Part shown: positions 16,730 through 46,011 of the stretch, one piece after another
Numbering within the stretch: position 1 is the first letter of the stretch
Layout: every line of letters starts with the position of its first letter
NCBI GenBank assembly: GCA_046583095.1
Contig: JAYGDB010000008.1
Coordinates: 33,164-97,163, forward strand
Source: Myxococcota bacterium
Lineage (GTDB): Bacteria; Myxococcota_A; UBA9160; UBA4427
Length of the DNA: 64,000 nucleotides
Direction: 5' to 3'
The notes under the pieces: generated by a model
The model's input: only the letters and a program-made list of their open reading frames with translations
Told to the model about the DNA's origin: nothing
Database searches by the model: none
Translations under genes and position numbers: made by a program

Positions 16730-17334
16730 AGCTGGCGGAACGCCTGCACGAAGCCTCCGGCGGCGCGCGACGTCTCGAGGCCCTGAGCGAGCACGTGGGA
16801 GCGCTGCTGCCGGAGGGCGCGAAGGTGCTCGACGTCGGCTGCGGCGACGGCATGCTCGACGAGCGGATCCAGCAGCGCCATTCGCATCTCGAGATCACCG
16901 GGATCGACGTTCTCGTGCGGCCGGAGGCGCGTATCCCGGTGAGGTTGTTCGACGGACGCACGATCCCGCATGCGGAAGACAGCTTCGACGCGGTGCTCCT
17001 GATCGACGTCCTCCATCACTGTGACGATCCGGAGGCGATGCTCGCCGAGGCGATCCGCGTCGCACGCCGCTGCATCGTCCTCAAGGATCACATCCTGAGC
17101 GGTCCGCTCTCGGGTGCGCTTCTCCGCATCATGGATGACATCGGCAACCGCCGCTTCGGCGTGGCCCTGCCGCACAAGTACTGGAGCGAGGCGCGTTGGC
17201 AGCAGACATTCGAGCGGCTGGGTCTTCCTGTCGAGGCCTGGATCACGGATCTCGGTCTCTACCCCGGCCCCCTGGATTGGATCTTCGGGCGGTCACTGCA
17301 CTTCGTGACGCGCCTCGGGATCTCATCTGAATGA
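16726..17334 (+). CDS. Class I SAM-dependent methyltransferase
   Basis: Track ORF trimmed to GTG 16726 (GTGA overlap with the remnant stop). VLDVGCGDGMLDE motif I, DAVLLIDVLHHCDDP. Confidence 0.8.
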   Translation: MKLAERLHEASGGARRLEALSEHVGALLPEGAKVLDVGCGDGMLDERIQQRHSHLEITGIDVLVRPEARIPVRLFDGRTIPHAEDSFDAVLLIDVLHHCDDPEAMLAEAIRVARRCIVLKDHILSGPLSGALLRIMDDIGNRRFGVALPHKYWSEARWQQTFERLGLPVEAWITDLGLYPGPLDWIFGRSLHFVTRLGISSE

Positions 17335-24794: not shown

Positions 24795-24797
24795 CGT

Positions 24798-28250: not shown

Positions 28251-30253
28251 GGTCTTGGGTCGGCCAGAGCGACCGCGTCTGCGACGCCGCCGTCTGCGGC
28301 TTCGCGGTGTGGACGCTGTGCTGTCACGCAGCCGCCTTCGCCGGCGGTAGCCTGGACACTCTCCTCTGGCTCTTCGCCGTCGGAGTCATCGCCCTGGGGA
28401 CCGCAGCCTGGAAGATGCGCGGGGCGGAGCCGGACCGCGAGGCACCCGGGGACGGCGAAGACTCGAGCGCGCCTGCGGGCTGGCAGCGCGCGTCCGTTGC
28501 AGTCTGGGCGCTGGGCTGCGTGCTGGCCGTCTCCCTCGACGCACCACTCCAACTCGTCTGGCTCGCGGCCGCCGCCCTCGCGATCGGTTTGTCGGCGCGC
28601 GAGCTATTCGCGTCGAAGGCCGAAGACGACCGGTCTCGCGCGCGCGAGACCGGGGTGCTCTGGATCGCAGGTCTCGCAGTCCTGTGCGTCATCATCACGC
28701 TCAGCTCGCATCGGCCGGACGCAGACGACGGCTTCTATTTGAATCTCGCCGTTGCGGCCGCTGAGAATCCGGGCGCCCCGGTGCTCGCGAACGACACGCT
28801 CCATCGGATCCCGGACGTTCCCCTGTCGCTACCCGTGTATCGGACACATTCGCTGGAGCTGCTGCAAGCTGCGCTCTCGCGCATCAGCGGCGCACCCGTC
28901 CTCGACGTCGCACACCTGTGGCTCCCGACGTTGGCGGCGCTGTGGGTGCCCTTCGCCTTCGCCCGCCTGACCCGACGCATCCTTCCTAGAGCGTGGCCCT
29001 GGGCGACCGGAATCTGGCTCGCCGTGCTGCTCTTCGCGGGGACCGCGAGCCACGGCTGGTCGAACTTCGGGCTCGTGCGGCTCCACCAGGGCAAGGCGCT
29101 GCTTCTCACCCTGCTCGCCCCACTCACGATCGCCTACGCGCTCGAATTCGCCCAGAGAGGCGGGGCACGGTCGTGGCTGCGCCTCGCGGCCGTGCAGATC
29201 TGCGCAGTGGGCGTGAGTGCGTCGGGCCTGTGGCTGGCTCCTGCGATGTCGGCAACCGCGCTGCTGGCCGGCGTCCGCAGCGTCGGGGAGGCCGCTTCGC
29301 GCAGGCGTCTCGCGATTGGGCTCGCCGCATCGGCCTACGTGCTCGTTCTCGCCCTGGCATTGCGCGGCGCCACCGTCGCCGCGTTCGAGAACGCGCCGAT
29401 TCAGAGCCCGGAACTCGATCTCTCGAGCCTGAAGCTCGCCACGCAGGCCATGCGCACGGTAATTGGCCCGGGACTCCCCGGCGCCTTTGCGCTCTTCGCG
29501 GCCTTCGGCGCCTGGGCGTTCGCCGAGAGAGCCGTCGCGCGACGACTCTGCGCGTTCTCGGCGGCCGCAACGCTGCTGCTCTGGAACCCGTTCGCCGCTT
29601 CCTTCGTTGCAGCGCACCTCACGAGCGCACCGACCTACTGGCGAATCCTGTGGCTGCTTCCGGTACCGGCGATGATCGCGGTCGTGCTGACGGCCCCGAT
29701 CGAGCGAGGTCTGCCCCCGAAGTCAGCAGCAGCAATCGTGATCGCTGCCACGATCCTTCTCTTCGGTGCCTCAGTGGCCTTCACCCCCAAGGCTCTGGCT
29801 CCTTCGGCTGCGAACCTCGTTCGCATCGCTGCGCCGGGTTGGAAAGTGCCTCCGAGCGAGTTCGACGCGGCCCGTGCGATCGCTGAAGCCAGCTCACCGA
29901 CCGACCGAGTACTCGCCCCCAAGCTCGTCGCACCCTGGGTTCCGACCTTCAGCGGCCATCCGACGCCTCTCGTCGTCCGAATCGAGTACCTCCCGGTGCT
30001 CTACGCCGCACTTGGACCCGAGGAACTGGCTCGTCGAATGCACCTGATGCGCCTGGTCTCCGGGGACCGGCACTCATCGCGTGCCGAGGCGATGCTGCGC
30101 GCTGTCATCCTCGAGGACGGCCTCGCGATCGTGTGCCTCGCGAATGCAGCCAAGCGCTGGCCCAACGTTACGCGCATCCTTGTAGAGACCGGCTTTCAGA
30201 AGATCCACGCGAACGCCGATTACGAAGTGTGGAAGCGGTCGTCTACCCTGTGA
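28247..30253 (+). CDS. Large polytopic membrane protein, GT-C-like, family not recognised
   Basis: Track ORF 27479-30253 trimmed to in-frame GTG 28247 (GTGA overlap). About 668 aa, many TM helices, first loop HRPDADDGFYLNLAVAAAENPG. Confidence 0.6.
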   Translation: MRSWVGQSDRVCDAAVCGFAVWTLCCHAAAFAGGSLDTLLWLFAVGVIALGTAAWKMRGAEPDREAPGDGEDSSAPAGWQRASVAVWALGCVLAVSLDAPLQLVWLAAAALAIGLSARELFASKAEDDRSRARETGVLWIAGLAVLCVIITLSSHRPDADDGFYLNLAVAAAENPGAPVLANDTLHRIPDVPLSLPVYRTHSLELLQAALSRISGAPVLDVAHLWLPTLAALWVPFAFARLTRRILPRAWPWATGIWLAVLLFAGTASHGWSNFGLVRLHQGKALLLTLLAPLTIAYALEFAQRGGARSWLRLAAVQICAVGVSASGLWLAPAMSATALLAGVRSVGEAASRRRLAIGLAASAYVLVLALALRGATVAAFENAPIQSPELDLSSLKLATQAMRTVIGPGLPGAFALFAAFGAWAFAERAVARRLCAFSAAATLLLWNPFAASFVAAHLTSAPTYWRILWLLPVPAMIAVVLTAPIERGLPPKSAAAIVIAATILLFGASVAFTPKALAPSAANLVRIAAPGWKVPPSEFDAARAIAEASSPTDRVLAPKLVAPWVPTFSGHPTPLVVRIEYLPVLYAALGPEELARRMHLMRLVSGDRHSSRAEAMLRAVILEDGLAIVCLANAAKRWPNVTRILVETGFQKIHANADYEVWKRSSTL

Positions 30254-30260: not shown

Positions 30261-31226
30261 ATGATCGCCGTCGTCATTCCCTGCTACCGGGTGAAGAGCC
30301 GGATCCTCGACGTCGTGTCCGGGATCGGCCCCGAGTGCCAGGCCATCTACGTGGTCGACGACGGCTGCCCGGAGGGCAGCGGCGACCACGTCGAGGCCGA
30401 ATGCCGGGACCCTCGGGTCCACGTCCTGCGGCACGAGAGAAACCAGGGAGTCGGTGCCGCCACCCTCACTGGCTACCAGGCCGCGCTCGACGGGGGCGCT
30501 GCGGTGATCGTCAAGCTCGACGGCGACGGGCAGATGGATCCCACATGGATCCCGCGCCTGGTGCGGCCCATCCAGGACGGCGAAGCCGACTACGTGAAGG
30601 GAAACCGCTTCTTCGACCTGGGCGATCTCGGTGCAATGCCGCGCGCGCGCGTGCTCGGCAATTCGCTCCTCTCGTTCGCCAGCAAGCTCTCGAGCGGATA
30701 CTGGAACGTCTTCGATCCGACGAACGGCTTCACAGCCATCCACGCCGCGGTGGCCCGCCGGCTTCCCCTTGCAAAGCTCTCGAAGGGCTACTTCTTCGAA
30801 TCGGACCTGCTCTTCCGCCTCGGCATCCTCCGCGCCGTGGTCTGCGAGGTTCCGATGCCCGCCGTCTACCAGGATGAGCCCAGCAGCCTGGTGATCCGAC
30901 GGGTGATCTTCCAGTTCGCAGGTAGGCACTTCGTCAACACCTTCAAGCGGATCTTCTACAGCTATTACCTGCGCAACTTCAACATCGCCTCGATCGAGAT
31001 CCTGGCCGGCCTGGCCTTCCTCGCTTTCGGTGTGTGGTTCGGCACTTCCGAGTGGATCGACGGCATCCGAGCGAACGTTCCCGCCACCAGTGGCACCGTG
31101 ATGGTCGCAGCCCTGCCCGTGATCGTCGGAGTTCAGCTCATCCTCGCGTTCCTGAGCTACGACCTGCAGAACGTGCCCCGCGAGATCCTGCATCGGCGTC
31201 TGGAGCCCGCGCCGTCGAAGGTTTGA
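30261..31226 (+). CDS. GT2 glycosyltransferase with C-terminal TM helices (GtrB/ArnC/DPM1-like polyprenol-phosphate glycosyltransferase)
   Basis: 321 aa; MIAVVIPCYRV, IYVVDDGCPEGSG, NQGVGAATLTGY, KLDGDGQMDP, DYVKGNRF; two C-terminal TM segments; GAGGA RBS. Confidence 0.85.
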   Translation: MIAVVIPCYRVKSRILDVVSGIGPECQAIYVVDDGCPEGSGDHVEAECRDPRVHVLRHERNQGVGAATLTGYQAALDGGAAVIVKLDGDGQMDPTWIPRLVRPIQDGEADYVKGNRFFDLGDLGAMPRARVLGNSLLSFASKLSSGYWNVFDPTNGFTAIHAAVARRLPLAKLSKGYFFESDLLFRLGILRAVVCEVPMPAVYQDEPSSLVIRRVIFQFAGRHFVNTFKRIFYSYYLRNFNIASIEILAGLAFLAFGVWFGTSEWIDGIRANVPATSGTVMVAALPVIVGVQLILAFLSYDLQNVPREILHRRLEPAPSKV

Positions 31227-31228
31227 CG

Positions 31229-32230
31229 GTGAGGCGCGCGACCGGGCTCCTGCTGCGCGCGGCCGTGGCTCTGGCAGGGCTGGCGCTGGCGTTCCGGCTT
31301 GCCCTGCCCGCAGGTGAAGACTCCGTCGTCGCCTCCCTGCTCTCGGCCTGGCAGGTGCCCGTGGGCGAAGCGCTTCTCTGGTTCGGCGTCGCCGTGGTGC
31401 TCCTCGGCGCGAACCTGGGGATCGGGGCCCTTCGCTTCCGCGGGCTGCTGCGCGGCGCGGGCCTGCACATCGACCTCGGCACCCTGGCTCGCGCCTACCT
31501 GGTTGCGTCCTTCTTCAACCTCGTCCTCCCGGGGGCAATGCTCGGCGACGTCTACCGCTTCTGGGACGCTCGGCGCGACACCGGCGAGGGCTCGCGGGTG
31601 CTGGCTGTCGTAGTCCTGGAGCGACTCCTCTCCCTCGCGGCGCTCGGGGCCATCGCGCTTGCGGTGGCACCGGTGATTCCGTCACTTCACGAAGACCGGC
31701 AGCTGTTGCTGTGGCTCGTCCTTGCGGGCGGATCCTTCGTCGTGGTCGCGATCGGCGTGCTGCTGCCGAGGGTGAACCAAGTGTTGCGGAGAATCGCGCA
31801 CAGCCTCGGTCGTTTCCACGAATCCCTATCGACCACCGGCGTGCGCGCACTCGAGGCCGTCGGCTCGCTCGCGTCGAAACCCGCTGTCGTCTCACGCGCA
31901 TTCGGATGGAGCCTCGTCAACCAGGCTCTCCCGGTGCTCGCCCTTGTCGTCCTGGCGATTCCCCTCGACGCCTGGGTGCCTTGGTACTGGTTCGCCGTCA
32001 TCGTGCCCTTCGTGACCCTCGTATCGCTGCTTCCGATCAGCATCGGCGGAACGGGCGTCCGGGAGGTCCTCTACGTGTCACTCTTCGGAGCCGTCGGAAT
32101 GCGCGCCGATGTCGCGCTGGCCCTGTCCCTGTCGGTACTCGCGGCTGCCCTCATCTGGGGCGGCATCGGGCTGGCCGTATTCGCCGTGGGACGTCGTGGC
32201 GATTCGTCGCTGGCAACGACGGAGGGGTGA
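31229..32230 (+). CDS. Flippase-like membrane protein (LPG_synthase_TM / UPF0104-type)
   Basis: Track ORF trimmed to GTG 31229 (or TTG 31223), directly after the GT2 stop. FFNLVLPGAMLGDVYRFWDARR and VLERLLSLAALG resemble this family. Confidence 0.7.
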   Translation: MRRATGLLLRAAVALAGLALAFRLALPAGEDSVVASLLSAWQVPVGEALLWFGVAVVLLGANLGIGALRFRGLLRGAGLHIDLGTLARAYLVASFFNLVLPGAMLGDVYRFWDARRDTGEGSRVLAVVVLERLLSLAALGAIALAVAPVIPSLHEDRQLLLWLVLAGGSFVVVAIGVLLPRVNQVLRRIAHSLGRFHESLSTTGVRALEAVGSLASKPAVVSRAFGWSLVNQALPVLALVVLAIPLDAWVPWYWFAVIVPFVTLVSLLPISIGGTGVREVLYVSLFGAVGMRADVALALSLSVLAAALIWGGIGLAVFAVGRRGDSSLATTEG

Positions 32231-33132
32231 CGTTGGCCTTCCTCGGCATCGCGATCCCGTTCTACCGAAACGTCTCCTACCTCCGGACCGCGATCGAGAG
32301 CGTCACCGAGCAGTCGTCATCCGATTGGCGGTTGTGGGTGCTGGATGACTCCGGTGGAAACGAGCCCGAGGAGACGGTCCGGCAGCTGATCGCGTCCTTC
32401 GACGACGACCGGATCCGCTACCACCGAAACCCCGAGACGGTCGGCATGGCCGCGAACTGGAACCACTGCCTCGACTCGGCGGATACCGAGTTCATCACCC
32501 TGCTGCACGGCGACGACCGCCTCCTCCCGAACTACCTGGATGCGATCCAACGCGTCGCCCGTGCCCATCCGCAGGCGGTGGCCGTCTATTGCGATACGAC
32601 GATCATCGGCGCCTCGGGCGAGACTGAGTTCTCCCTGGCCGACCGGGTCAAGGGCTTCTTCTCACCAGGAGGCAGTGGCGAGGTAGTGCTCACCGGCCAG
32701 CCGGCAGCGACTGCGCTCATGCGTGGCAATTTCATCATGTGCCCCACCCTGAGCTTCCGTCGTTCCTTGCTCGGAGCGCGGCGCTTCGACGCCGGTTGGG
32801 AGCAGGTGCAAGACCTCGATCTGACGCTGCGGCTGCTGATGGATGGCGAGACGTTGGTCGGTGCCGCGGAGATCGCCTACGCGTACCGGCGCCACCCGGA
32901 GAGTGCGACATGGGTACAATCCCAGAATCGCCTCCGCTTCGACGAGGAGTTTCGGCTCTTCGACCAGATCGCGGCGCGCGCAGAAGCGCTCGGCTGGAGC
33001 GAGACGGCTCGCGTCTCGCGCCGCAAGCGGATTGTGAAGCTACACCTCGCGTACCGGGCGCTCCGGGCCTTCGCCAGGCTGCAACCGCGAAGCGCCGTCG
33101 AGACCCTGCGCTACCTGCGCTCCCGCTGGTAG
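32227..33132 (+). CDS. GT2 glycosyltransferase
   Basis: Track ORF trimmed to GTG 32227 (GTGA overlap). LGIAIPFYRNVSYLRTAIESV, WVLDDSGGNE, TLLHGDDRLLPNY. Confidence 0.85.
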   Translation: MTLAFLGIAIPFYRNVSYLRTAIESVTEQSSSDWRLWVLDDSGGNEPEETVRQLIASFDDDRIRYHRNPETVGMAANWNHCLDSADTEFITLLHGDDRLLPNYLDAIQRVARAHPQAVAVYCDTTIIGASGETEFSLADRVKGFFSPGGSGEVVLTGQPAATALMRGNFIMCPTLSFRRSLLGARRFDAGWEQVQDLDLTLRLLMDGETLVGAAEIAYAYRRHPESATWVQSQNRLRFDEEFRLFDQIAARAEALGWSETARVSRRKRIVKLHLAYRALRAFARLQPRSAVETLRYLRSRW

Positions 33133-34724
33133 GGCCCGTCGCGCCGCGTCCAGAACGTGCCGGAGCGAATCTGGGCGCCGGAGATTGGAACCAGGACCGT
33201 CACGTCCTCGAAGAGCCACCCCTTCATCTCGTAGTGGCGCTCGAGCAGACCGTCGGGCAGGTAGTTGCGAAGGAAGGCCGTGTTGCTGTCGATGACGACG
33301 GCAAAGCGCTTCTCGCGAATCGCACGCGTGTACGACTCGCGCAGCTCCTCGGCGTCCGCGAGGCCACTCTTCGCGTAGTCGGCGACAGGCATCTGATGCG
33401 CGAAGACGCGCTTTCCCGCGCGTCCCGCCAGGTAACCCTGGACGGGCATCAGCACCTCACCCTCGATTCCGGCTACCCGGGCCGCTAGGGCATTTCCAGC
33501 GCGACGATCGGCTTCGGTCGGCAGGATTCCGTCCGGCACCCGCATCAGGAGGGCTAGTTGCAACAGCAGACCCGCCGCCACCATGACCGCCACCGCCGCC
33601 GATCGTTCAGGGGATACGACAGCGCGGATACGAGCGATCGAGACCCCCAGCACGACAGCCAGCCAGGCGTGGGCCGGGATCAGATTGTTGGCAGCGCCGC
33701 CGACCTTGATACGCGGAATCAGGCAGGCCAGCAGCACGCAGACGAGGACGAGGAGATGGAAGCCGTCCCACTCGTCCTGCTGGCGGCGCCGAAGAACCAG
33801 CCACAAGAGGGGCGCCAGGCTGAGGACCGGCACCGAGAGCAGGAGATCGCGCCAGAGGAACCAGCCCACCATGTGGGGAAGGATCCCGTGCTGCTGCTGG
33901 GCGCCTACGATGTGCAGCAGGAAGTGCTCCTCGAGGATCCCGTTCAGGAGCCCGGTCGCAGTCCCGACGAGCGCTGCGAGCACCAACCCGTACGCGATGA
34001 AGCGATCCCACTCCCGAAAGCGTCCGAGATCTCGCTTGGTCGCCTTCCAGTCCGCCCAGGCGCACCACAGGGCCAGCGGTGCCACCACGACGACGGCGGT
34101 CTGCTTCGTCATCACGGCCAGGAAGGCCAACACCGCTGCGAGCACGAGATCCGAGCGTCCCTGCGCAAAACGAAACCGGTAGAGGGAAGCGAGCAGCAGG
34201 AAGGTGAAGAGGGAGTCGAGCCGGGCGACGTCGAAATAGAGCCCGGAGGCTCGCCATGTCGCCAGGAAGATGCCGGCGGCAATCGCGCCGAAGACCACGC
34301 GGCCCGTCTCCCGGCGCACGAATCGATGCACGATCCAGGCCGTGCCGAGGGAGGCGGCTAGGGAGATGATCCGCAGGGGAAGAAGGCCCGGCCCCGTGAG
34401 CTTGGAGACGATCGCACCCAGGTAGTAGTAGAAGGGCGGGTACGGGAAGGGAACGAACTCGATGGACGGCCTGACGTAGAGGGGGTCTCCGCGTAGCACC
34501 CGCATCAGGTGCTCGAGAGATCCCCCCTCCATCCACTCGAGTTCGAACGGATACGTGAGGCGCTGAAGCGAAGAACCGAGGTAGAGCGCCGCGAAGCCCA
34601 CAGACGCGACGACGCAAGCTGCCAGGATGGTGCGTTCGAGGCGCTCGGACACCGCGCAAGGGTATCGCAGCAGCGTTGACAGACGCGGCATGACCGGGGT
34701 CGATCGCCTACTTTCCGAGACCAT
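33111..34724 (-). CDS. GT39/ArnT-like GT-C membrane protein
   Basis: 537 aa (alternative start ATG 34691). YPFELEWMEGGSLEHLMRVLRGDPLYVRPSIEFVPFPYPPFYYYLG, polytopic. 22-nt convergent overlap with the GT2 at 32227-33132. Confidence 0.7.
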   Translation of the reverse strand: MVSESRRSTPVMPRLSTLLRYPCAVSERLERTILAACVVASVGFAALYLGSSLQRLTYPFELEWMEGGSLEHLMRVLRGDPLYVRPSIEFVPFPYPPFYYYLGAIVSKLTGPGLLPLRIISLAASLGTAWIVHRFVRRETGRVVFGAIAAGIFLATWRASGLYFDVARLDSLFTFLLLASLYRFRFAQGRSDLVLAAVLAFLAVMTKQTAVVVVAPLALWCAWADWKATKRDLGRFREWDRFIAYGLVLAALVGTATGLLNGILEEHFLLHIVGAQQQHGILPHMVGWFLWRDLLLSVPVLSLAPLLWLVLRRRQQDEWDGFHLLVLVCVLLACLIPRIKVGGAANNLIPAHAWLAVVLGVSIARIRAVVSPERSAAVAVMVAAGLLLQLALLMRVPDGILPTEADRRAGNALAARVAGIEGEVLMPVQGYLAGRAGKRVFAHQMPVADYAKSGLADAEELRESYTRAIREKRFAVVIDSNTAFLRNYLPDGLLERHYEMKGWLFEDVTVLVPISGAQIRSGTFWTRRDGPYQRERR

Positions 34725-36222
34725 GGACGCGACCCCTCGCGGATCGCGAAGCGGCTCTCGGATCGCACTGCTCGTCGGCTGCGCGAGCTTCCTCTTCTTC
34801 CTGCTTCTCCAACACGGTCACTTCAAGGGAAGCGACGAACTCGCGGTCTACGAGATGAGCCGCTCGATCCTCGAGAACGGCGACCTCGCCGTTCCGCCAC
34901 TCCGGCACACCGAGGTCGGTGCGGACGGCCGGCGCTACAGCTACTTCGCGCCCGGCCAGTCGGTCCTCGCGCTCCCGCTGTTCGCGCTGGCCGAGCCCCT
35001 GGGCGCCGTACTGCCCACCGCCTGGAGCGAAGCGCTGGCCGGCCCTCCGAATCGGCGTGGCGCCTACCGCTTCGGAGGCGAACTCGAAGCCACCCTGGTG
35101 GGCCTCTTCGGACCGCTCTCTGCCGCAGCGCTGATCGCGCTCTTCTTCGTGTTCCAGCTCGATCTCGGAGTCTCTCCTCGCCGCGCGGTGATCGTCGCCC
35201 TGCTCGTCGCGATGTCGACCCACACCGCGGTGATGTCCGCATATTTCTTGCGGCACACCACCGAGGCAATCACCCTACTGGGCGCGCTGCTCCTCTTCCG
35301 GCGTTTCAGCCAGTCCGGCTCCCTCAAGACCCTTGGCATCGGCAGCGCCCTCGCGTCCCTCACGCTTCTCATCCGGGTTCCCGCCGCGATCGCGGCGCCG
35401 ACCCTGGCCAGCTACCTCGTGTGGGTGCTCTACCAGCGCGGCGAGTGGCGCATGGGCGGCGCTCGGTTCGCCGGCATCCTCGCGGCCATCCTGATGCCGC
35501 TCGGGATCGCCCTCGCGATCCATGTCGGCATCAGCGAAGCGAAGTGGGGAAGCTGGCTGATTTCGCCGATGGTCGAGCAGCAGGGCCGCTTCAACAATCC
35601 CCTGCTGCGCGGCCTCGCCGGTCTGCTGCTGAGCCCGGGATCGAGCATCTTCGTGTACTCACCGCTGCTGCTGCTTGCCCCGTTCGGACTCACCAGGCTG
35701 TGGCGCCGGGAACGCGCCCTGGCGGCGGCGGCCCTCGCCCTGACCGCCACCTGGCTGCTCTTCTACGCGCGCTTCGACGGTTGGAGTGGCCTCTGGTCGG
35801 CGCCCGGCCCGCGCTACCTGTTCCTGCTCGTTCCCCTGCTGCTGCTCCCGCTTGGCCTGTGGCTCGACTCGCCACGACGCTGGGCGGCCGCTTCGCTGCT
35901 CGCGGTCGCGGGGTTGTTCGTTCAGCTGGTCTCGACGCTGGTCCGCTGGGGATCCGTGCCCGGCCTCGCCGATTATCCGATTCTCGGACCCGACCAGGCG
36001 GACTTCCTCTTCCAGATCTCGCGCAGCCCCGTCCTAGTCATGACCGGGCTGCTGGCAAGCGGCGGCCCGATCGACTCCTGGCTGTGGAACCTGTGGCACG
36101 GGTGGGAGGGCTTCGCAGGACAGCCTGGCGCGGTCGTCGCGCTTCTCGGCCTCTGGACTGCGGCGGCGAGCGTCTGCGGAATCGGGCTCCGGCGCGCGCT
36201 GCGCGCAACGCGGGCCAGCTGA
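34723..36222 (+). CDS. Polytopic membrane protein, GT-C-like
   Basis: Start ATG 34723 (alternatives 34690, 34627). HFKGSDELAVYEMSRSILENGDLAVPP...YSYFAPGQSVLALPLFALAEPLG; about 12 predicted TM helices. Confidence 0.55.
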   Translation: MDATPRGSRSGSRIALLVGCASFLFFLLLQHGHFKGSDELAVYEMSRSILENGDLAVPPLRHTEVGADGRRYSYFAPGQSVLALPLFALAEPLGAVLPTAWSEALAGPPNRRGAYRFGGELEATLVGLFGPLSAAALIALFFVFQLDLGVSPRRAVIVALLVAMSTHTAVMSAYFLRHTTEAITLLGALLLFRRFSQSGSLKTLGIGSALASLTLLIRVPAAIAAPTLASYLVWVLYQRGEWRMGGARFAGILAAILMPLGIALAIHVGISEAKWGSWLISPMVEQQGRFNNPLLRGLAGLLLSPGSSIFVYSPLLLLAPFGLTRLWRRERALAAAALALTATWLLFYARFDGWSGLWSAPGPRYLFLLVPLLLLPLGLWLDSPRRWAAASLLAVAGLFVQLVSTLVRWGSVPGLADYPILGPDQADFLFQISRSPVLVMTGLLASGGPIDSWLWNLWHGWEGFAGQPGAVVALLGLWTAAASVCGIGLRRALRATRAS

Positions 36223-36223
36223 G

Positions 36224-37933
36224 GTGCCCGCGACCCCTGATCGGCGGGCCACTGCAGTCGCCCTCGTAGGCGTCACCTGCGCCGCCCTGTTGGCGGGCAG
36301 CGCCCTGCTACGGCCGGGCTTTTACGACTCTCACGACGGCCTCCTCAACGTCCACCGGCTCTTCGAGTTCGAGAAGTGCCTGGCCGATGGCCAGATCCCC
36401 TGCCGCTGGGTTCCCGACATGGGCGCCGGCTACGGCTACCCGCTCTTCAATTTCTATCCGCCGCTTCCGACCGCAGTGGCAGAGGGCTTCCGGCTGCTCG
36501 GCGCCTCGTTGCTCGACGCCATCAAATGGGCGTTCCTGCTGGGACTCGTCGTCGGGGCCCTCGGGATGTTCCGCCTGGCCTCCAGGTTCTTTGGTCCAGC
36601 AGGCGCAGTGCTCGCCGCGGTCCTCTACGTGTTCGCTCCCTACCAGGCCATCGACGTCTTCGTGCGGGGCGCTCTCGGCGAAGCGTGGGGAATGGCGCTC
36701 CTCCCGTTCGTCTTCTTGACAGGCCACCGCTGCCTCACCGAGCCGGGACGAGCCCTCCGTCACGCGCTCCCGTGCGCGCTCTCCTGGGCGGCCCTGCTCC
36801 TCACGCACGACATCGTCGCCTTGATGGCCACCCCGTTCTACGCGGCCTGGTTGTGGGTCAGCTGGCGGACGAGTCGTCGGAGCCCGGGCCCTGCCGTGCT
36901 GGCGCATGCGCTCGCGCTGGGGCTTTCGGCGTTCTTCCTACTGCCGCTCGCGTTCGAGCTGCACCACGTCCACGCCGACACCCTCACTCAGCTGTATCCC
37001 TGGGCACGTTTCGAGAACAACTTCCTCTCCGTGACCCAGCTGCTCGGCGCTCCGAGAGCCTGGGGATACGGCGCCCTCGGCTCTCACAACCCGATGTCCC
37101 TCTTCATCGGCCGGCTCCACTTCCTCCTCGGTGCCGGGGCGATCGGGATATGCGCAATTGCCTGGCTGCGGGAACGGCGAGTCGACACCAGCGGGGCCGC
37201 GGCGCTGACGCTGGGGTCGGCGGCACTCGTGGCCGCGTTCATGATCCTGCCGGCATCGCGCTTCGTCTGGGAGGCGACCCCACCCCTCTCGTTCCTGCAG
37301 TTCCCGTGGCGCTTTCTCGCGATCACGAGCTTCGGCCTCGCGTTTGCCGCCGGCTGGCTCGTGTACTGGACCCGCAACCGCGGCCCCATCCCGCTGGCGA
37401 TCGTCGCCGTCGCGACGATCGCCGCGATCGCCACGAGCTGGGGTTGGTTCCGCCCGTCGGCGATGCACGTCGTACAGGAGCAGGTGCTGGCAAACGAGTG
37501 GGAGATCGCGAAGGCCCGCCACGGACTCTTCGACTTCCTGCCGCGCAGCGTCGATCTCGAGCACTTCCTCGCGAGCCCGCCGGCGCCGCTGCCGCCGCCG
37601 GTCCACGCGCCACCGGGTGTAAGCCTGAGCAAGCTAGAGCGAACCACGAATCGAATCGGCTTCGATGCCCGGGTCCGCGGCGACGAGACGGCGCGGGTTC
37701 GAATCAACGTGTTCGACTTCCCGGGCTGGACCCTCGAGGTCGATGGCCGGCCTGAAAACTTCGCGGCAAGCGACGACCCACTCGGCCGACTCCACCTCAG
37801 CCTGGCGCCGGGCAGCCATAGGGTCGTAGTGCGCTTCGAGAACACGCCGATCCGATCCCTCGCGAACGCCGTCTCCCTCCTCTCGCTCGTCGCGGCCCTC
37901 CTCTGGACGGCCGCCATCATCCGGTCGCGGTAG
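36224..37933 (+). CDS. PTPS-related (6-pyruvoyl-tetrahydropterin-synthase-related domain) integral membrane protein
   Basis: 569 aa, GTG start 1 nt after the upstream stop. YDSHDGLLNVHRLFEFEKCLADGQIPCRWVPDMGAGYGYPLFNFYPPLP matches the N-terminal signature of that family as I recall it. Confidence 0.65.
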   Translation: MPATPDRRATAVALVGVTCAALLAGSALLRPGFYDSHDGLLNVHRLFEFEKCLADGQIPCRWVPDMGAGYGYPLFNFYPPLPTAVAEGFRLLGASLLDAIKWAFLLGLVVGALGMFRLASRFFGPAGAVLAAVLYVFAPYQAIDVFVRGALGEAWGMALLPFVFLTGHRCLTEPGRALRHALPCALSWAALLLTHDIVALMATPFYAAWLWVSWRTSRRSPGPAVLAHALALGLSAFFLLPLAFELHHVHADTLTQLYPWARFENNFLSVTQLLGAPRAWGYGALGSHNPMSLFIGRLHFLLGAGAIGICAIAWLRERRVDTSGAAALTLGSAALVAAFMILPASRFVWEATPPLSFLQFPWRFLAITSFGLAFAAGWLVYWTRNRGPIPLAIVAVATIAAIATSWGWFRPSAMHVVQEQVLANEWEIAKARHGLFDFLPRSVDLEHFLASPPAPLPPPVHAPPGVSLSKLERTTNRIGFDARVRGDETARVRINVFDFPGWTLEVDGRPENFAASDDPLGRLHLSLAPGSHRVVVRFENTPIRSLANAVSLLSLVAALLWTAAIIRSR

Positions 37934-37944
37934 AATCCCCGCTC

Positions 37945-38694
37945 ATGTCGCGGACGTGGATCGTGATCCCCTGCTACAACGAGGCGAATCGGCTTCGCGG
38001 AGACGAATTCTCGCGCTTCGTGAGCGAGCACGCCGACGTTCACTTCGTCTTCGTCGACGACGGCAGTACCGACGCAACCTCGTCCAGGCTGGCCGAGATC
38101 GCGATGTCGAGCCCAGGCTCCTTCGACGTCATCAGCCAATCCTCGAACCGGGGAAAGGCCGAGGCCGTCCGGCGCGGCATCAACCAGGCCTTCGACGGCG
38201 GCGCAACCTATGTAGGCTACTGGGACGCGGACCTCGCGACCCCCCTCGCCGAGATCCCCCGCTTCGTCGAGACGCTCGACGCCCATCCAGACCTCGAGAT
38301 GCTCTTCGGCTCCCGCGTCCAGCTCCTGGGACGCAGGATCGATCGCCGGGCCCGGCGCCACTACCTGGGACGCGTCAGCGCCACCGCCATCTCGCTGACG
38401 CTCGGCCTCGCGGTCTACGACACCCAGTGCGGTGCCAAGCTCTTCCGGGTTTCGCCGGACTGCAAGGCGCTATTTGCCGAGCGCTTCCTCACGAACTGGG
38501 TATTTGACGTGGAGATCATCGCCCGCATGATCGAGAACCGACGCGGTACGGGCCGGCCCGGTCCCGCCGAGGTGATCCGCGAAATCCCACTCTGGGAGTG
38601 GCGCGACGTCGAGGGCTCGCAGGTGAAGCCGCTGGACTTCTTCCGCTGTCTGGCCGAGCTGTTGCGAATCTACCGCCGCTACCTGCGCGGGTAG
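37945..38694 (+). CDS. GT2 glycosyltransferase, Alg5/dolichyl-phosphate glucosyltransferase-like
   Basis: 249 aa; WIVIPCYNEANRL, FVFVDDGSTDAT, NRGKAEAVRRG, YWDADLATP, YDTQCGAKLF. Confidence 0.85.
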   Translation: MSRTWIVIPCYNEANRLRGDEFSRFVSEHADVHFVFVDDGSTDATSSRLAEIAMSSPGSFDVISQSSNRGKAEAVRRGINQAFDGGATYVGYWDADLATPLAEIPRFVETLDAHPDLEMLFGSRVQLLGRRIDRRARRHYLGRVSATAISLTLGLAVYDTQCGAKLFRVSPDCKALFAERFLTNWVFDVEIIARMIENRRGTGRPGPAEVIREIPLWEWRDVEGSQVKPLDFFRCLAELLRIYRRYLRG

Positions 38695-40220
38695 ACGCTC
38701 AGCCGCCAGATCGCGCCGAACCGGCCCGGAGCGAAGAGCGGAGCACGAGTCGCGAGACGAATGTCTTCGTAGAGCGCGTGATGAGCCGGGGCGGCCAGGA
38801 GGTTCGCGTCCTGCTCGAGGCTATCGCGATAGCCACGGGGAACCCGGCGGAAGTAGTGCCCGACGCGCCACCTCGTAGGATCGATCATCGGCATGCGTGC
38901 GAGCAGCGGGTCCGAAAGCGCGCAGCGATCTGCCAGGAAGGTCGCGCGACAAGCGCTGAAACTCTCGTACCCCAGCTCGCCGCAGACGCTGCGAATCACC
39001 ACCGGGGCGCTGTCTTCGCGACATCGAGAACCCGCCGTCAGCTCGCGCTCCGCCTCCCGGGCGAGCAAACCGCGCCGCCGGTAGTAGAAGCCCCGCTCGT
39101 CCGAGATCCCCCGGTCCGCCAGGACCTGGGCCTCGTCGCGGTTCTCGTAGTCCCGGCCCGCGCGAAGCGGCGAAAGCGGGTTCATCAGCGACACCACCAG
39201 ACACAGGAGTGCGAGCCCACCGAACCCCGCCGCCGGCCAAGCGACACGGGCCAACAGGGCGACGGCCGCGAAGAACGGCGGCGCGAGCAAGCGGCCGGCC
39301 ATGAAGTCCCCGCCAATCTCGACCAAGTAGAGGAGTTGCAGGACGATTCCGGCCGCGACGGCCGCCGCCGAGAAGCTCCGCCGCCGAGCCGCTACGACCG
39401 CCGCGAGGCAGAGCGAGATCAGGATCACTGCCGGAGTCACGATGTCGAAACGAAACGAGTGTCCCAGGAAGAACAGGCCCTGTTCGCGAAGGAGCGCGCC
39501 CTCGATGCCCGTCGTCAACTTCGCATAGAAGGTGTTGGGAAGCGGCGTGCCGTAGTAGAAAGTCGCGAAGACGAGCCACGACAGGGCCGGGGTGAAGCCC
39601 AGCAGCAGCGATGCCAACCAGCTGCGCGTCGGCGTCGGGCCTCGGACTTCGCCCGCGATCGAGAGCAGCAGCGGGGGCAGCAGCAGCAGGACCGAGTCCA
39701 TCCGGTTCACGAAGGCCAGCGAGGTGACCAGCGCGAGCGCGCCGAGTCTCCTCGGCTCCGACAGTGCCAGGTGGATACCGATCGCCAGCAGCAGGTAGGA
39801 AAGGGGAGTTTCGAGGCCGGAGGTCGTGTAGTCGACGAAGGCCTTGGAAGAGAGCAGGCAAGCTCCGGCCGCCGAGGCCGCGAGCCAACGCCCCTCTCGC
39901 ACCGGGACGACCAGGAGACCGGCCACGGCCACAGAGGAGACCACGAGCGAGACGAGCATCGGTGTATAGAACGCTTCGCCCGTCGCGAGGTAGACCGGCG
40001 CGAGCAGGAAGAGCCAGAGGGGATGCGTATACGACTGGACCCGTTCGGCCAGGTTGAAGCGAAGGCCGTCGCCATTCACGAAGTGCTCGAGCGTGCGGAA
40101 GGTGATGAGGCCGTCGTCCGACAGCCACGCGCTCTGCACCATCATCCACGCGAGCACGAGCGAGGTGGCAGCAAAGAGGAGTTGCCAGCGGCGCGAGTCG
40201 GGCAAGACGCGGCGAAGCAT
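38679..40220 (-). CDS. Polytopic GT-C-like membrane protein (DD-x-ITFR first-loop type)
   Basis: Start ATG 40220 (MLRRVLPDSRRWQLLF) or ATG 40277. AWLSDDGLITFRTLEHFVNGDGLRFNLAERVQSYTHPLW. 16-nt convergent overlap with 37945-38694. Confidence 0.6.
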   Translation of the reverse strand: MLRRVLPDSRRWQLLFAATSLVLAWMMVQSAWLSDDGLITFRTLEHFVNGDGLRFNLAERVQSYTHPLWLFLLAPVYLATGEAFYTPMLVSLVVSSVAVAGLLVVPVREGRWLAASAAGACLLSSKAFVDYTTSGLETPLSYLLLAIGIHLALSEPRRLGALALVTSLAFVNRMDSVLLLLPPLLLSIAGEVRGPTPTRSWLASLLLGFTPALSWLVFATFYYGTPLPNTFYAKLTTGIEGALLREQGLFFLGHSFRFDIVTPAVILISLCLAAVVAARRRSFSAAAVAAGIVLQLLYLVEIGGDFMAGRLLAPPFFAAVALLARVAWPAAGFGGLALLCLVVSLMNPLSPLRAGRDYENRDEAQVLADRGISDERGFYYRRRGLLAREAERELTAGSRCREDSAPVVIRSVCGELGYESFSACRATFLADRCALSDPLLARMPMIDPTRWRVGHYFRRVPRGYRDSLEQDANLLAAPAHHALYEDIRLATRAPLFAPGRFGAIWRLSVYPRR

Positions 40221-40264
40221 ACTACAGTTGGGCCTCTCCCCTGGATGCCCCCGCTTCCGAGAGC

Positions 40265-42253
40265 GTGCCCGTGACATCCATCAGCCGCTGGCAACTCGTA
40301 CTCGCGTTGGCAGCCGTCGCCGCTTCGGCCGCGTGGATCGTCGATGCGACGCTGCGGAACCCGAACATCCCGTTCCTCCCAGCGGTGGACGACCCCGAAT
40401 GGATCGGTGTGCATGCCCCGACCGATACCGACGCGATCCAGGTCGATCGCAGGAATGTCCCTAGTTACACGTTCTCGACGCGCTTCGCTCTCGACGCGGT
40501 GGCTCCCAACACCGTCGTCCGCACGCGATCACTAGGCAAGCTCGAACTCCGCATCAACGGGGCCCTCGTCTGGAAGTCCGATCCCACGACCAGCTGGAAG
40601 CGCGAGGCGGTCGCCTCCGTGGCCGAGCTGCTCCGATCCGGCGACAACGAGATCCGCGCGCGCGTCTCGAACGCGCGAGGCCCGGCGCTGCTGCAGCTGC
40701 GCCTGGAAGATGGCGACCGCAGGATCCTCGAGACCGACTCGAGCTGGCGGGCGATCGGCCCGGGCTCGAGGAGCTTCGGCAGCGTGCGCGCGAGCGACAC
40801 GCGCCTCGACCCCCAGTCCTCATCGCTGCCGGGGAGCGGCACGATACGGGTCCGCCACGCAGCCGCGCTGGGGCTCTTCTTCGGGCTGGGGGCGCTCGGC
40901 CATCTCGCGATCCGTCGCCGCCTCTCGGAGCGCGCGCTCGCGCGCGCTCCCGAAGCGGTTCTCGCCCTCGCGACGCTCTTCTGGCTGCTCGTCTACATGT
41001 TCAAGAGCACGAGCCTGCCCGTGCTGATGGGCTTCGACATCGTCGGGCATCTCGCGTACATCGACTTCCTGCGCGAGCACGGCGCGCTCCCGCTCGCGAC
41101 CGATGGGGGGTCGATGTACCACCCACCCCTCGGCCACGCGGTGATTGCCGGGCTCGCCGGCCTCTTCGATCTCGCCCGGGAAGAGCCGGCGAGCCGATGG
41201 CTCTACCGCCTCCCGACCTTCGTGGCCGGCCTCGGAAACGTCTGGGCGGTGTGGTTTGTCGCGCGACGCCTCTTCGACCGCGACCCGCTGCGCACGAGCC
41301 TCGCGGTCGGCTTCGCAGGACTGCTCCCGATGAACGTCTACATGAGCGCCTACGTGTCGAACGAGCCTGTCCACAGCTTCCTGGTGAGCGTTTCCCTGTG
41401 CATCGCTTGCGTGCTGCTGCTGACGCCGGGTGCCGCTCGATCCCGTGTCGCCGGTCTCTCCGTAGCTCTCGGGCTCGCCATCCTCACGAAGTTCACCGCG
41501 CTGATTGCGGTTCCGATCGTCGGGCTCTTCCTCGCCGCAAAGCTGTGGATCGTGGACCGCGCGACGCCGCTCCGCGCCCTCGCAACGAGCGCCGCGATGG
41601 GAGTCGGCGTCGCGGCCGTCGGTGGCTGGGTGTACCTGCGCAACTGGCGCCACTTCGGGCGCCCCGTCGTCGGCAACTGGGACCTCCCGGGAGATCTCGC
41701 GTGGTGGGAGCAGCCGGGGTTCCACACCGCGGACTACTACACGAGCTTCGGCCAGTCCCTCTCGCATCCCTTCTTCGCGGGCTACGCGTCCTTCTGGGAC
41801 GGCGTCTACTCGACCTTCTGGGGCGATGGGCTCGTCGCCGGGATGCTGCGTCTATCCACGCGGCACGATGCCTGGAATTACGATTTCATGACGGCGAGTT
41901 ACTGGCTCGCCTTCCCCGCGACGCTCGCGCTGATGCTGGGGTTCGTCCGCGCTCTGCGCTTCTGCGTGGCAGGCAGCGACCTGCGTCGGCGTCTGGCGAT
42001 GAGCATGCTGGTGGTCTTCCTGTACGCGGCGTGCTTCGCACTCCTCGCAATCACGTTCCAGCTCCCCTATTACGCCCAGGCGAAGGCGTTCTACCTGCTG
42101 TCGGCCATCGTTCCGCTGTGCCTCATCGCGGCGCTCGGGCTCAGTTGGGTGTTCGAGCGCTTCTCGGAACCGCGTTGGCTCTTCGTCCAGACGATCTACT
42201 GCGGCTGGCTGGGAAGCCTGGCCGGAGCGCTCATCCTCTCCTTCCTCGGCTAG
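40265..42253 (+). CDS. GT39/PMT_2-like GT-C membrane protein with extra N-terminal extracytoplasmic domain
   Basis: 662 aa, GTG start. One TM, then a ~170-aa soluble-looking domain, then FDIVGHLAYIDFLREHGALPLATDGGSMYHPPLGHAVIAGL and a polytopic region. Confidence 0.7.
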   Translation: MPVTSISRWQLVLALAAVAASAAWIVDATLRNPNIPFLPAVDDPEWIGVHAPTDTDAIQVDRRNVPSYTFSTRFALDAVAPNTVVRTRSLGKLELRINGALVWKSDPTTSWKREAVASVAELLRSGDNEIRARVSNARGPALLQLRLEDGDRRILETDSSWRAIGPGSRSFGSVRASDTRLDPQSSSLPGSGTIRVRHAAALGLFFGLGALGHLAIRRRLSERALARAPEAVLALATLFWLLVYMFKSTSLPVLMGFDIVGHLAYIDFLREHGALPLATDGGSMYHPPLGHAVIAGLAGLFDLAREEPASRWLYRLPTFVAGLGNVWAVWFVARRLFDRDPLRTSLAVGFAGLLPMNVYMSAYVSNEPVHSFLVSVSLCIACVLLLTPGAARSRVAGLSVALGLAILTKFTALIAVPIVGLFLAAKLWIVDRATPLRALATSAAMGVGVAAVGGWVYLRNWRHFGRPVVGNWDLPGDLAWWEQPGFHTADYYTSFGQSLSHPFFAGYASFWDGVYSTFWGDGLVAGMLRLSTRHDAWNYDFMTASYWLAFPATLALMLGFVRALRFCVAGSDLRRRLAMSMLVVFLYAACFALLAITFQLPYYAQAKAFYLLSAIVPLCLIAALGLSWVFERFSEPRWLFVQTIYCGWLGSLAGALILSFLG

Positions 42254-44562: not shown

Positions 44563-46011
44563 TCAACGCAGGGGCATCAACCACCTCTCCGGATCGATCT
44601 GCTGGAGGAACCACGGGAAGTCGCCGTAGAGATAGAAAGCCGCCACGCCGGCGACGAGCCAGGGCCGCGCCTTCTCGGGAGCCAGTTCGCCAATACCGTA
44701 CGCGACGAGACCGTAGATCGGAACCAGCACCGGGAAGATGTAGCGGCCCTGCAGGCCCAACTCGATGAAGCGCGAGGCCTGGTAGTTCGGGTAATTGACG
44801 AACCACATCAGTATCAATGCGTAGCCAGCGGCCAGGAAGGCAGCGTCCGCTGGAACTCCGTGACTCGCGCCGGGACGCCAGCGCCAGGCCAGCAGGAGCG
44901 CGGCGAGCAGGAAGACCGCCGTGTAGGCGTAGATCGCATCGTCGCTCTTCTCGACCCGCCGGTGGCCCAGGTACCCCACGCTGCTCTTGAGAATGCGCCA
45001 GCTCCACTGCCCCACGTACTGGATCCGTCCACTCACAGACGAGGCTGGACGCTGCGCGGCCTTCAGCAGGATGATCGTGTCGCGGCGATCGCCCAGGTGG
45101 CGGATCTTCCGCGAGAGGCGGCGCGCCTCGCCGACGGTGATCTCGCCCGCCCGAAAGCGTTCGAGGATGCGAGCACGCGCGAAGACCCGGTTCTGCATGG
45201 CATTTTCCTCGCCGACGACCTGGTCGAAGGCGGGCGACAGACTTCGGTACTGGAGCAGGTTGCCGCCGAAGAGAGCCAGCGCGAGACCGCCGAGGATCAG
45301 CACCGTCGCGAGCAGTGCCCAGGTGCTCGCGGTCGCAGCCCGGAACGCTGCGGTGGTGTGCTCGACGAGATTGCCGAGGTGACTCCGCTCGCGAAAGAGC
45401 ATCCAGACGACGAGCAGGAAACCCAGGGGCAGAAAGGTGCGCTTGGCGAGACAGCCCGCCAGCACCAGCGCAACGAAGGCCAGCAGCCACTCCGCGCTTC
45501 GCCGGCTGCGGAAGCGGGTGAACGCCAGTACGGAAGCAGCGGCCAGCAGATTCGCCCCGTTGTCGTAGCTCACGCTGCCGGCCAGCCCCGTGAGCATCAA
45601 GGTGTTCGTCACGAGCACTCCGAACAACACCCGCGCCCACGGGCTGCGGCACCACTCCTGAACCCACAGGATGGCGAGGACCGCCGTCGCGAGACCGAGC
45701 ACACCGTTCATCAGGCGCACGAAGAAGAGATCCGGGATCGGAAAGACGTTGAGGGCGACCGTCCGCGCCATCCCCCAGTAGTAGAGCCAGGGGCGGTGGT
45801 CGAGAAGCCCGTACTCGAAGCTCGCGGGGCCGTTTTCAGGCACGCCCCAGGAGTTCGCGTAGGCGAGCACCCGGCCGATGTGGGTGATCTCGTCCGGAGG
45901 CACATAGGGGTGGATGCGCAACGCGAGCCAGACGACGCGCGCCGCGAAGTACGCGAGCAGCAGCCCGTAGACCGCGAGCTCCCACCGTTCGGGCTTGGAC
46001 CGGGAGCTCAA
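44563..46011 (-). CDS. Polytopic membrane protein, GT-C-like
   Basis: 482 aa; first loop IHPYVPPDEITHIGRVLAYANSWG; many TM helices; starts 9 nt after the glmS stop. Confidence 0.6.
   Translation of the reverse strand: MSSRSKPERWELAVYGLLLAYFAARVVWLALRIHPYVPPDEITHIGRVLAYANSWGVPENGPASFEYGLLDHRPWLYYWGMARTVALNVFPIPDLFFVRLMNGVLGLATAVLAILWVQEWCRSPWARVLFGVLVTNTLMLTGLAGSVSYDNGANLLAAASVLAFTRFRSRRSAEWLLAFVALVLAGCLAKRTFLPLGFLLVVWMLFRERSHLGNLVEHTTAAFRAATASTWALLATVLILGGLALALFGGNLLQYRSLSPAFDQVVGEENAMQNRVFARARILERFRAGEITVGEARRLSRKIRHLGDRRDTIILLKAAQRPASSVSGRIQYVGQWSWRILKSSVGYLGHRRVEKSDDAIYAYTAVFLLAALLLAWRWRPGASHGVPADAAFLAAGYALILMWFVNYPNYQASRFIELGLQGRYIFPVLVPIYGLVAYGIGELAPEKARPWLVAGVAAFYLYGDFPWFLQQIDPERWLMPLR

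Follow-up and report, generated by a model that had tools for sequence, protein, structure and literature searches.

Why should five dissimilar membrane glycosyltransferases be crowded around one soluble glycosyltransferase, and do they all draw on a single lipid-linked sugar? The question is raised by six genes, here called A to F, that occupy positions 33111–42253 of a 64,000-nucleotide stretch (the window; G+C ∼67%) of contig JAYGDB010000008.1 from an uncultured Myxococcota bacterium (assembly GCA_046583095.1). A preliminary description of this DNA had presented the array as five GT-C-like genes served by one Alg5-like glycosyltransferase of family 2 (GT2), which would make a common donor for several acceptors or for stepwise chain building in the periplasm. 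That reading was found to be partly supported, its weakness being where the array was delimited rather than what it contains. With moderate confidence, we favor the view that the locus is a composite of at least two periplasmic glycosylation modules of the three-component type, assembled at a variable cassette site, and not one hub. The genes of the array are as follows.

A, 33111..34724, minus strand: predicted GT-C-type glycosyltransferase of the PMT_2/ArnT-like superfamily; its start may be 34691 (M12).
B, 34723..36222, plus strand: membrane protein of 499 aa with a predicted GT-C fold, from an unannotated family.
C, 36224..37933, plus strand: GT-C-like protein of the PTPS_related/YfhO family.
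D, 37945..38694, plus strand: soluble GT2 of 249 aa, a candidate Alg5/DPM1-like polyprenyl-phosphate-hexose synthase.
E, 38679..40220, minus strand: AftB-like GT-C protein of 513 aa, an accessory gene between D and F.
F, 40265..42253, plus strand: predicted GT-C-fold protein with two extra N-terminal transmembrane helices and a periplasmic beta-sandwich.
F N-domain, 40382..40804, plus strand: extracytoplasmic beta-sandwich (residues ∼40–180) resembling the N-domain of GH78 rhamnosidases and CBM67.

All six open reading frames (ORFs) were located at these coordinates, and their G+C content at third codon positions (GC3, 0.82–0.85) is of the coding type; the existence of six genes within 9 kb can thus be taken as real. 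The starts of B at 34723 and E at 40220 are backed by the lengths of their homologs, while homologs of F begin at 40271, giving a protein of 660 aa. B, C, D, and F all lie on one strand, with a single nucleotide between the stop codon of B and the start of C and 11 nt between C and D. D and E are convergent and overlap by 16 nt, and the starts of E and F are ∼45 nt apart. The start codons of the divergent genes A and B overlap in a CCATGG palindrome (34722–34725), so either both promoters lie within the partner's coding sequence or the true start of A is M12 at 34691. A promoter and terminator scan of positions 30000–44800 returned no more sites than shuffled sequence did and is therefore uninformative on operon structure. 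Scans of the window with Rfam and for tRNAs were both empty. The NCBI record (MFP6627513-526) lists B, C, E, and F as "hypothetical protein" and D as "glycosyltransferase".

The five membrane proteins A, B, C, E, and F are predicted GT-C-type glycosyltransferases of five different families. Evidence for this assignment, which agrees with the preliminary description, comes from Pfam, structure models, a match to AftB, and invariant acidic motifs, and it varies in strength from protein to protein. All five are polytopic, each with at least 7–10 hydrophobic segments by Kyte-Doolittle analysis, and the five family alignments revealed an acidic motif kept in the loop after an early transmembrane (TM) helix in every case. 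In A, the stretch PFELEWMEGG after TM1 is invariant in 8 orthologs, with E50, E52, and E55 invariant in the numbering of family alignment A5. The corresponding residues are D38 of a GSDE motif after TM1 in B (alignment A2), H37-D38 after TM1 in C (alignment A3), D36 of an SDDG motif in E, and D258 of a GFDxxGH motif in F (alignment A1), all of them invariant. Protein A also matches PMT_2 at 37.4 bits, above the Pfam cut-off of 26.1. B has no Pfam match of its own; 12 of its 63 homologs match PMT_2 and 7 of the 63 match PMT. The C family is large, with more than 1120 homolog clusters extending into Patescibacteria. Among its full-length homologs, 48 of 54 match PF10131 (PTPS_related) at E≤1e-3 (best 1.8e-15) and 17 of 54 match PF09586 (YfhO); co-matches to DUF6077 were seen on homologs as well.

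Sequence searches of the PDB, both single-sequence and profile-based, gave no match for A, B, C, or the TM part of F, so comparison of folds was needed as evidence for GT-C membership. AlphaFold2 predicted bundles of helices for both B and F, at a confidence (pLDDT) of 94 and 93.4, respectively. In Foldseek searches, the best match of the B model was ArnT (5ezm/5f15; E 1e-6, TM-score 0.5, probability 1.0), followed by PglB, Pmt4, ALG9/12, and EmbB. F, which has no Pfam match itself, matched STT3, ArnT, Pmt4, and AglB (probability 1.0, E ∼1e-6) as well as AftA. For E, an alignment with the solved structure of AftB (9dlf) was obtained at E 2e-13. The E family comprises 12,474 representative clusters and is not limited to Actinobacteria. 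A true AftB can be ruled out: E scores 58.2 bits against the AftB equivalog model NF041481, whose cut-off is 1050, and genes for the decaprenyl-phosphoarabinose (DPA) pathway, namely a UbiA-type DPPR synthase and DprE1/2, were absent from the window ORFs scanned with Pfam. By these scores E is a remote homolog of AftB and not an ortholog.

The preliminary description had judged the GT-C-like proteins mutually dissimilar by eye, and this held up in systematic comparison. BLASTP among ten polytopic proteins of the window gave no pair below E 0.1, and the links that appear are remote ones between profiles. In hhalign comparisons, A and F were paired at a probability of 96.5% (E 9e-10), A and E at 91%, A and C at 63%, and C and F at ∼45%; profile-profile comparison of B with the other GT-C proteins gave E-values of 0.003–0.01. 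The acidic motifs align in register in these comparisons. As judged from sequence, the five proteins share a superfamily but belong to separate families in it, and are not recent duplicates.

F stands out by its N-terminal domain, an extra extracytoplasmic region already pointed out in the preliminary description and now seen to be a beta-sandwich. Residues ∼40–180 gave a profile match (1.3e-12) to residues 153–262 of the rhamnosidase SaRha78A (3w5m), the Foldseek matches of the domain were 6gsz, 6i60, and 3w5n, and Bac_rhamnosid_N was found in two F homologs. In the model, two added TM helices ahead of the GT-C core place the sandwich outside the membrane. The F family, made up of 54 homolog clusters, was found in 235 genomes at the species level, almost all of which are metagenome-assembled genomes (MAGs) of uncultured Myxococcota or "Deltaproteobacteria". 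One homolog of 884 aa, P0053, carries C-terminal TPR repeats, a layout of GT-C domain plus TPR that is like that of the eukaryotic TMTC O-mannosyltransferases.

The remaining member of the array, D, has a GT2 match in Pfam and no TM helix. Its nearest solved relatives are the dolichyl-phosphate-mannose synthase of Pyrococcus furiosus (5mlz, 3e-7) and ArnC, and its NCBIfam matches include PpgS, ArnC, and, weakly, PgfS. DAD, DTQCGAKLF, and WxFDVE motifs are kept in 21 orthologs. When compared with a yeast Alg5 sequence of unverified provenance, D showed 29% identity over 264 aa (E 4e-21) in a full-length alignment spanning the DTQCG(F/A)KLF and WxFDVE motifs; the four other GT2s of the window reached 1e-6 or worse against the same sequence. 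The N-terminal TM anchor of Alg5 is missing from D. Given the full-length similarity and the shared motifs, and with the caveat on the provenance of the Alg5 sequence, the label "Alg5-like" is a reasonable one, and we regard D as a candidate polyprenyl-phosphate-hexose synthase of the Alg5/DPM1 type.

Which of the GT-C proteins go with D was assessed from gene neighborhoods. For this purpose, 24 window proteins were compared by tblastn with 85 loci, and further contexts were then added to give about 90 loci in all (designated L001 and so on). Four relatives, L001, L006, L090, and L091, share the array A(−) B C D F, with F identities of 58–78% and the order A-B-C-D-(E)-F; the genes are thus syntenic in relatives as well as GT-C-like. 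One of the four, L001 (ENA ERZ25039549 contig_19535, 300 kb), has frequent frameshifts that split B, C, D, E, UvrD, and GlmS; these are typical of an uncorrected long-read assembly, and its gene calls are not trustworthy. The pair D-F is spread far more widely than the array. In 24 of the 85 loci, F follows immediately downstream of D, down to an F identity of 37%, and L002 has a 4-nt overlap between them. Downstream of the pair, UvrD is found in 23 of these 24 loci, usually followed by GlmS and GlmU, and about 19 of the 24 are without A, B, C, and E. In L002, the slot upstream of D is filled by a different protein of 561 aa with a WQDEGE motif.

Gene A has other company, namely three genes immediately upstream of the array in the window.

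GT2_30261, 30261..31226, plus strand: ArnC/GtrB/AglJ/PpgS-like GT2 of 321 aa with two C-terminal TM helices, a candidate second polyprenyl-phosphate-sugar synthase.
LPG_synthase_TM gene, 31034..32230, plus strand: flippase-like protein of the MprF TM-domain family (PF03706, 1.7e-33); its true start is probably near 31230.
GT2, ∼32236..33132, plus strand: WcaA/EpsE/PglI-like protein of ∼298 aa, converging on A with a 22-nt overlap.

The second of these genes had been overlooked because it was masked by a longer, overlapping ORF in another frame (31711–33132, 473 aa). A GC3 frame plot ruled out that this ORF is a GT2 with an N-terminal extension and resolved it into a composite of the LPG_synthase_TM gene, ending at 32230, and the GT2 from ∼32236. 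In five loci (L012, L013, L014, L020, and L066), A adjoins F together with GT2_30261 and the GT2 that follows, and D is absent. A and GT2_30261 also occur together in L006, and by Pfam annotation L091 has the order GT2, LPG_synthase_TM, GT2, A as in the window, with the same gene order in L001. For B and C, the neighbors point elsewhere: B adjoins a D homolog (44% identity) in L087, where the other flanking genes are unrelated to those of the window, and C homologs lie two genes away from a D-like GT2 in L088 and L089. These last two loci (L088, 1–15707; L089, 1–15749) each carry an array with four GT-C genes, of which three are PMT/PMT_2 and the fourth is PTPS_related, along with a pair of small GT2 genes, a DHH phosphoesterase, and a Wzx-like flippase. 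The shared operon, the B-D pair in L087, and the proximity of C to D-like GT2s plausibly link D to both B and C.

The single-GT2 reading of the preliminary description fails: D is indeed the only GT2 within 33111–42253, but these limits were drawn too tightly, as four more GT2s lie upstream. A donor common to all five GT-C proteins fits F, to which D is tightly linked, and plausibly B and C; on the other hand, A goes with GT2_30261, and E comes and goes.

The variable presence of E was traced in the four relatives that carry the array. L001 and L091 have E, whereas L006 and L090 lack it. In L090, the closest of the four (F identity 78%), the spacer between D and F retains the first ∼9 codons of E along with CATACTACAGT, a 5′ remnant indicating that E was lost there. 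The occurrence of E in L091 (F 58%) and L001 (F 62%), together with the remnant in L090, rules out a recent insertion and points to an ancestral gene that was later lost; no insertion-type flanking repeats were found around E. The element CATACTACAGT lies at 40216–40230 of the window, overlapping the E start codon, and is kept upstream of F in L090 (5640–5665), L001 (∼9797–9810), and L091 (∼9965–9978) over F identities of 58–78%. It may be the −10 promoter element (TACAGT) of F. A perfect 14-nt inverted repeat (40179–40192 and 40284–40297) brackets the divergent starts of E and F, both arms encoding R-W-Q-L. As a regulatory element or an insertion signature it was ruled out, being conserved in neither L001 nor L091, and it is probably lineage-specific or due to chance.

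In the composite that we favor, D would use a nucleotide sugar on the cytoplasmic side of the membrane to charge polyprenyl phosphate with a hexose, the lipid-linked sugar would then be flipped, and the GT-C enzymes would pass it to periplasmic acceptors. D and F would form an ancient pair and the conserved core of the locus. B and C would have been added to the D operon in the window's own clade, and they probably share the donor made by D because they are in one operon with it (spacers of 1 and 11 nt). A would have arrived with its own upstream module, consisting of the ArnC/GtrB-like GT2_30261, the LPG_synthase_TM gene, and a further GT2. E would be a dispensable, optional accessory of the AftB-like kind. 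The rhamnosidase-N/CBM67-like sandwich of F probably holds a glycan acceptor. Candidate acceptors are lipopolysaccharide, periplasmic or surface polysaccharides, and glycoproteins.

Several points weigh against this account. The mechanism is drawn wholly from sequence, models, and gene neighborhood, the host being uncultured. The GT-C assignment of A and C comes from Pfam and hhalign, and the C protein of the window itself falls below the Pfam cut-offs for both PF10131 (22.1 bits against 26.4) and PF09586 (21.1 bits against 28.5). The comparison that links D to Alg5 used an Alg5 sequence of unverified provenance. Unlike GtrB, ArnC, and CsbB, D has no TM helices to attach it to the membrane. 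The sole flippase candidate is the LPG_synthase_TM protein, which is flippase-like only and belongs to the other module, that of A; Pfam scans of the window ORFs, with small ORFs outside the scan, found no GtrA, SMR, MATE, or Wzx domain. Finally, F is present without D in L013 and L014, and L086 has B, an A-like protein, and an E homolog in tandem beside UvrD-GlmS with neither D nor F. The partnerships are thus not obligatory.

Viewed more widely, the 9-kb array is, on balance, probably the densest section of an envelope- or protein-glycosylation locus that spans at least 32 kb. Gene density is striking, with some ten GT-C-like genes and five GT2s in 32 kb. In most of the further polytopic proteins nearby, an early TM helix is followed by a D/E motif; some of the proteins have Pfam support, and at least three GT2s of the wider locus resemble polyprenyl-phosphate-sugar synthases. 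The additional genes are listed below.

Polytopic protein, 13715..15541, minus strand: GT-C-like candidate carrying an SDDE motif, soluble in its C-terminal part; also found close to F homologs elsewhere.
PMT_2-family GT-C, 17331..18968, plus strand: PF13231, 41.8 bits.
AglB-like protein, 19725..22244, minus strand: AglB_L1 C-terminal domain (6e-17).
GT2_24072, 24072..24797, minus strand: DPM1/AglJ-like GT2 of 241 aa, a candidate third polyprenyl-phosphate-sugar synthase.
GT2, 27285–28250: a further upstream GT2 gene.
DUF6077 polytopic protein, 28250..30253 (start approximate), plus strand: GT-C-like candidate with a DADDG motif (PF19554, 8e-18).
Polytopic protein, 44563..46011, minus strand: GT-C-like candidate with ∼8 TM helices, a PPDE motif after TM1, and a weak match to the LIC_10190 family.

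GT2_24072 resembles a haloarchaeal dolichyl-phosphate-hexose transferase and is conserved at 72–78% in relatives, and the gene at 44563–46011 is conserved in L001 and L006. The AglB-like protein has no STT3 match in Pfam and no WWD(Y/W)G motif, with "APEYG" roughly at the expected position; it may be a diverged or non-canonical oligosaccharyltransferase. Sugar-related genes of the locus encode an epimerase/dehydratase, a DegT aminotransferase, a GFO/IDH/MocA oxidoreductase, a methyltransferase, sulfatase-family proteins, GlmS, and GlmU. At 21917–24072 (minus strand), the aminotransferase adjoins the oxidoreductase, and the relative L002 has a hexapeptide acetyltransferase in addition. The pair resembles the WbpB/WbpE/WbpD route, which suggests a 2,3-diacetamido sugar in the glycan. 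The sulfatase-family genes (2036–3529 and 24798–26438, both minus strand) have counterparts beside F and PMT_2 genes in L002, L022, L058, and L086, with up to four per locus; their products may be sulfatases or phosphotransferases of the alkaline-phosphatase superfamily acting on the same glycan. Farther out, a 1016-aa fusion of MFS-like and spermine-synthase-like domains with TPR repeats (10668–13718, plus strand) adjoins very large TPR proteins (5512–10667, plus strand), and the same combination was seen beside F homologs and an STT3/AglB gene in the distant MAGs L004 and L005.

Four other explanations of the array were weighed against a composite of modules, together with a more ambitious version of the pathway itself. 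An assembly line, in which the GT-C enzymes take turns at one acceptor and so build or lengthen a single periplasmic glycan, is unlikely. Parallels would be the synthesis of arabinan and mannan in mycobacteria or the ALG steps of the lumen of the endoplasmic reticulum (ER), and an assembly line would explain why five or more GT-C families share a locus with an AglB-like protein, cytoplasmic GT2s of the lipid-linked oligosaccharide (LLO) type, and sugar-modifying enzymes (DegT, GFO/IDH/MocA, epimerase, and methyltransferase). The matches of the B model to ALG9/ALG12 would also fit. However, the GT-C set varies among relatives: about 19 loci have only D-F, E is optional, and L086 and L002 differ again, a pattern that optional decorations fit better than an obligatory ordered pathway. 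In addition, polymer-export or polymerase genes were not identified in the array.

Somewhat more doubtful is the hub, with D as sole donor synthase and all five GT-C enzymes placing its lipid-linked sugar on different acceptors. That D is the only GT2 within 33111–42253, that B, C, D, and F are on one strand with tiny spacers, and that the whole array is co-inherited in four relatives all speak for it, and the pgf operon (PMC5856776) and mycobacterial DPA (PMC12041299) are precedents for one donor shared by many GT-C enzymes. Yet GT2_30261 and the flippase-like gene, 1.9 kb upstream of A, co-vary with A rather than D, and E was gained and lost independently of D. Moreover, AftB, the solved homolog of E, uses a donor that is made by no GT2, and a third, DPM1-like GT2 is encoded at 24072–24797. 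Both the assembly line and the hub are possible for the subset B-C-D-F; for A and E, neither is supported.

We likewise give little credence to a mere hot spot, at which functionally independent genes of unrelated pathways have gathered because the site by UvrD-GlmS-GlmU is permissive for recombination. The slot upstream of UvrD does hold different GT-C sets in different lineages (L002, L086, L012, and the window), and E is polymorphic for presence and absence. Against this, the spacers of 1 and 11 nt in B-C-D and the overlap of D with F by 4 nt in L002 indicate that these genes are co-translated, D-F adjacency persists down to 37% identity, and B-D adjacency recurs in L087 amid otherwise unrelated flanks.

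The ambitious version of the pathway, which we consider very improbable, has marine Myxococcota running an ER-lumen-like route in the periplasm: a lipid- or protein-linked glycan, put together with the aid of the nearby AglB-like protein, would be extended stepwise by B, C, F, A, and others. Polyprenyl-phosphate-hexose would come from Alg5/DPM1-like synthases, the lectin-like domain of F would read the growing glycan, and these bacteria would thereby have an equivalent of the ALG3/9/12 and ALG6/8/10 steps. That some of the five proteins are instead non-active, as pseudo-enzymes, scaffolds, or transporters with a GT-C-like fold, is hardly credible, since the acidic residues are invariant at the canonical position in all five alignments and the high GC3 and intact ORFs argue for selection, even though non-catalytic GT-C-fold proteins exist (PIG-U of the glycosylphosphatidylinositol transamidase is among the Foldseek matches of F), A and C have no structure model, and C is under its Pfam cut-off.

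If the module assignments made for the composite hold, the locus would offer testable pairs of donor synthase and GT-C enzyme for several GT-C families without a characterized member. No new mechanism is revealed, and the native host is uncultured; the class of mechanism is already known, and what is new is the membership, with the unannotated families B and F, and the domain architecture of F. This arrangement, in which two extra TM helices and a rhamnosidase-N/CBM67-like beta-sandwich are combined with a GT-C domain, is undescribed. Multi-GT-C cassettes are a recurrent, uncharacterized architecture in other uncultured bacteria as well (L086, L088, and L089). In uncultured Myxococcota, the variable GT-C cassette site is kept beside uvrD-glmS-glmU, and such a pattern would suit diversification of surface glycans, for example under phage or grazing pressure.

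How does the locus compare with known systems? In eukaryotes, LLOs are elaborated in the ER lumen by Alg5 with ALG6/8/10, and by ALG3/9/12, and archaeal AglD/AglS offer a related comparison. D is nearest to Alg5 among the sequences compared (the Alg5 sequence being of unverified provenance), the B model matches ALG9/ALG12, and an AglB-like gene lies 11 kb upstream of the array. In contrast, nothing here points to an LLO or N-glycan acceptor, and the AglB-like protein is without the WWD motif. Mycobacteria have many distinct GT-C enzymes (AftA-D, EmbA-C, PimE, and Mpt) that use lipid-linked monosaccharide donors (PMC12041299). E aligns with the TM domain of AftB (PDB 9dlf), including a DDG-type motif, whereas its C-terminal part does not align and its score falls well short of the equivalog cut-off. 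A further comparison is with ArnC/ArnT, which modify lipid A with aminoarabinose. Among solved structures, B is matched best by ArnT, which is also one of the best matches of F, and ArnC is among the matches of D; however, identities are only 14–16% and TM-scores 0.36–0.5, no arnA/B/D/E/F genes are present, and F differs from ArnT by its added beta-sandwich and two extra TM helices.

Closer parallels come from small operons. CsbB-YfhO and GtlA-GtlB of Bacillus and Listeria glycosylate teichoic acids and are encoded by two-gene operons of a GT2 and a GT-C (PMC5836110, PMC7389260). C and YfhO share the PTPS_related/YfhO superfamily, but the relationship is remote (21 bits to PF09586), and teichoic acids are absent from the host, a Myxococcota bacterium of the Gram-negative type. 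In the pgf operon of Streptococcus mutans (pgfS, a GT2, with pgfM1, pgfE, and pgfM2), two membrane proteins and an epimerase act on surface adhesins (PMC5856776). Here, too, the operon of a single GT2 includes two or more GT-C-type membrane proteins, and D weakly matches PgfS, although the window has five unrelated families and no epimerase within the array. In Gtr-type and GT136 pentofuranose systems, a cytoplasmic synthase makes a polyprenyl-phosphate-monosaccharide, which is flipped and used by a GT-C enzyme to add sugar to a finished periplasmic glycan (PMC11127046). Gtr consists of the flippase GtrA, the undecaprenyl-phosphate-glucose synthase GtrB, and a serotype-specific GT-C, and one synthase can serve interchangeable GT-C enzymes (PMC11127046). 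GT2 and GT-C genes are adjacent in both settings, but D lacks the two C-terminal TM helices of GtrB, the window has no GtrA/SMR or MATE flippase in the ORFs scanned (the LPG_synthase_TM protein being the candidate), and there are five to ten GT-C enzymes where Gtr has one. By analogy, then, the modules of this locus would be expected to work in the manner of GtrA/B/C, CsbB-YfhO, the pgf operon, and ArnC/ArnT.

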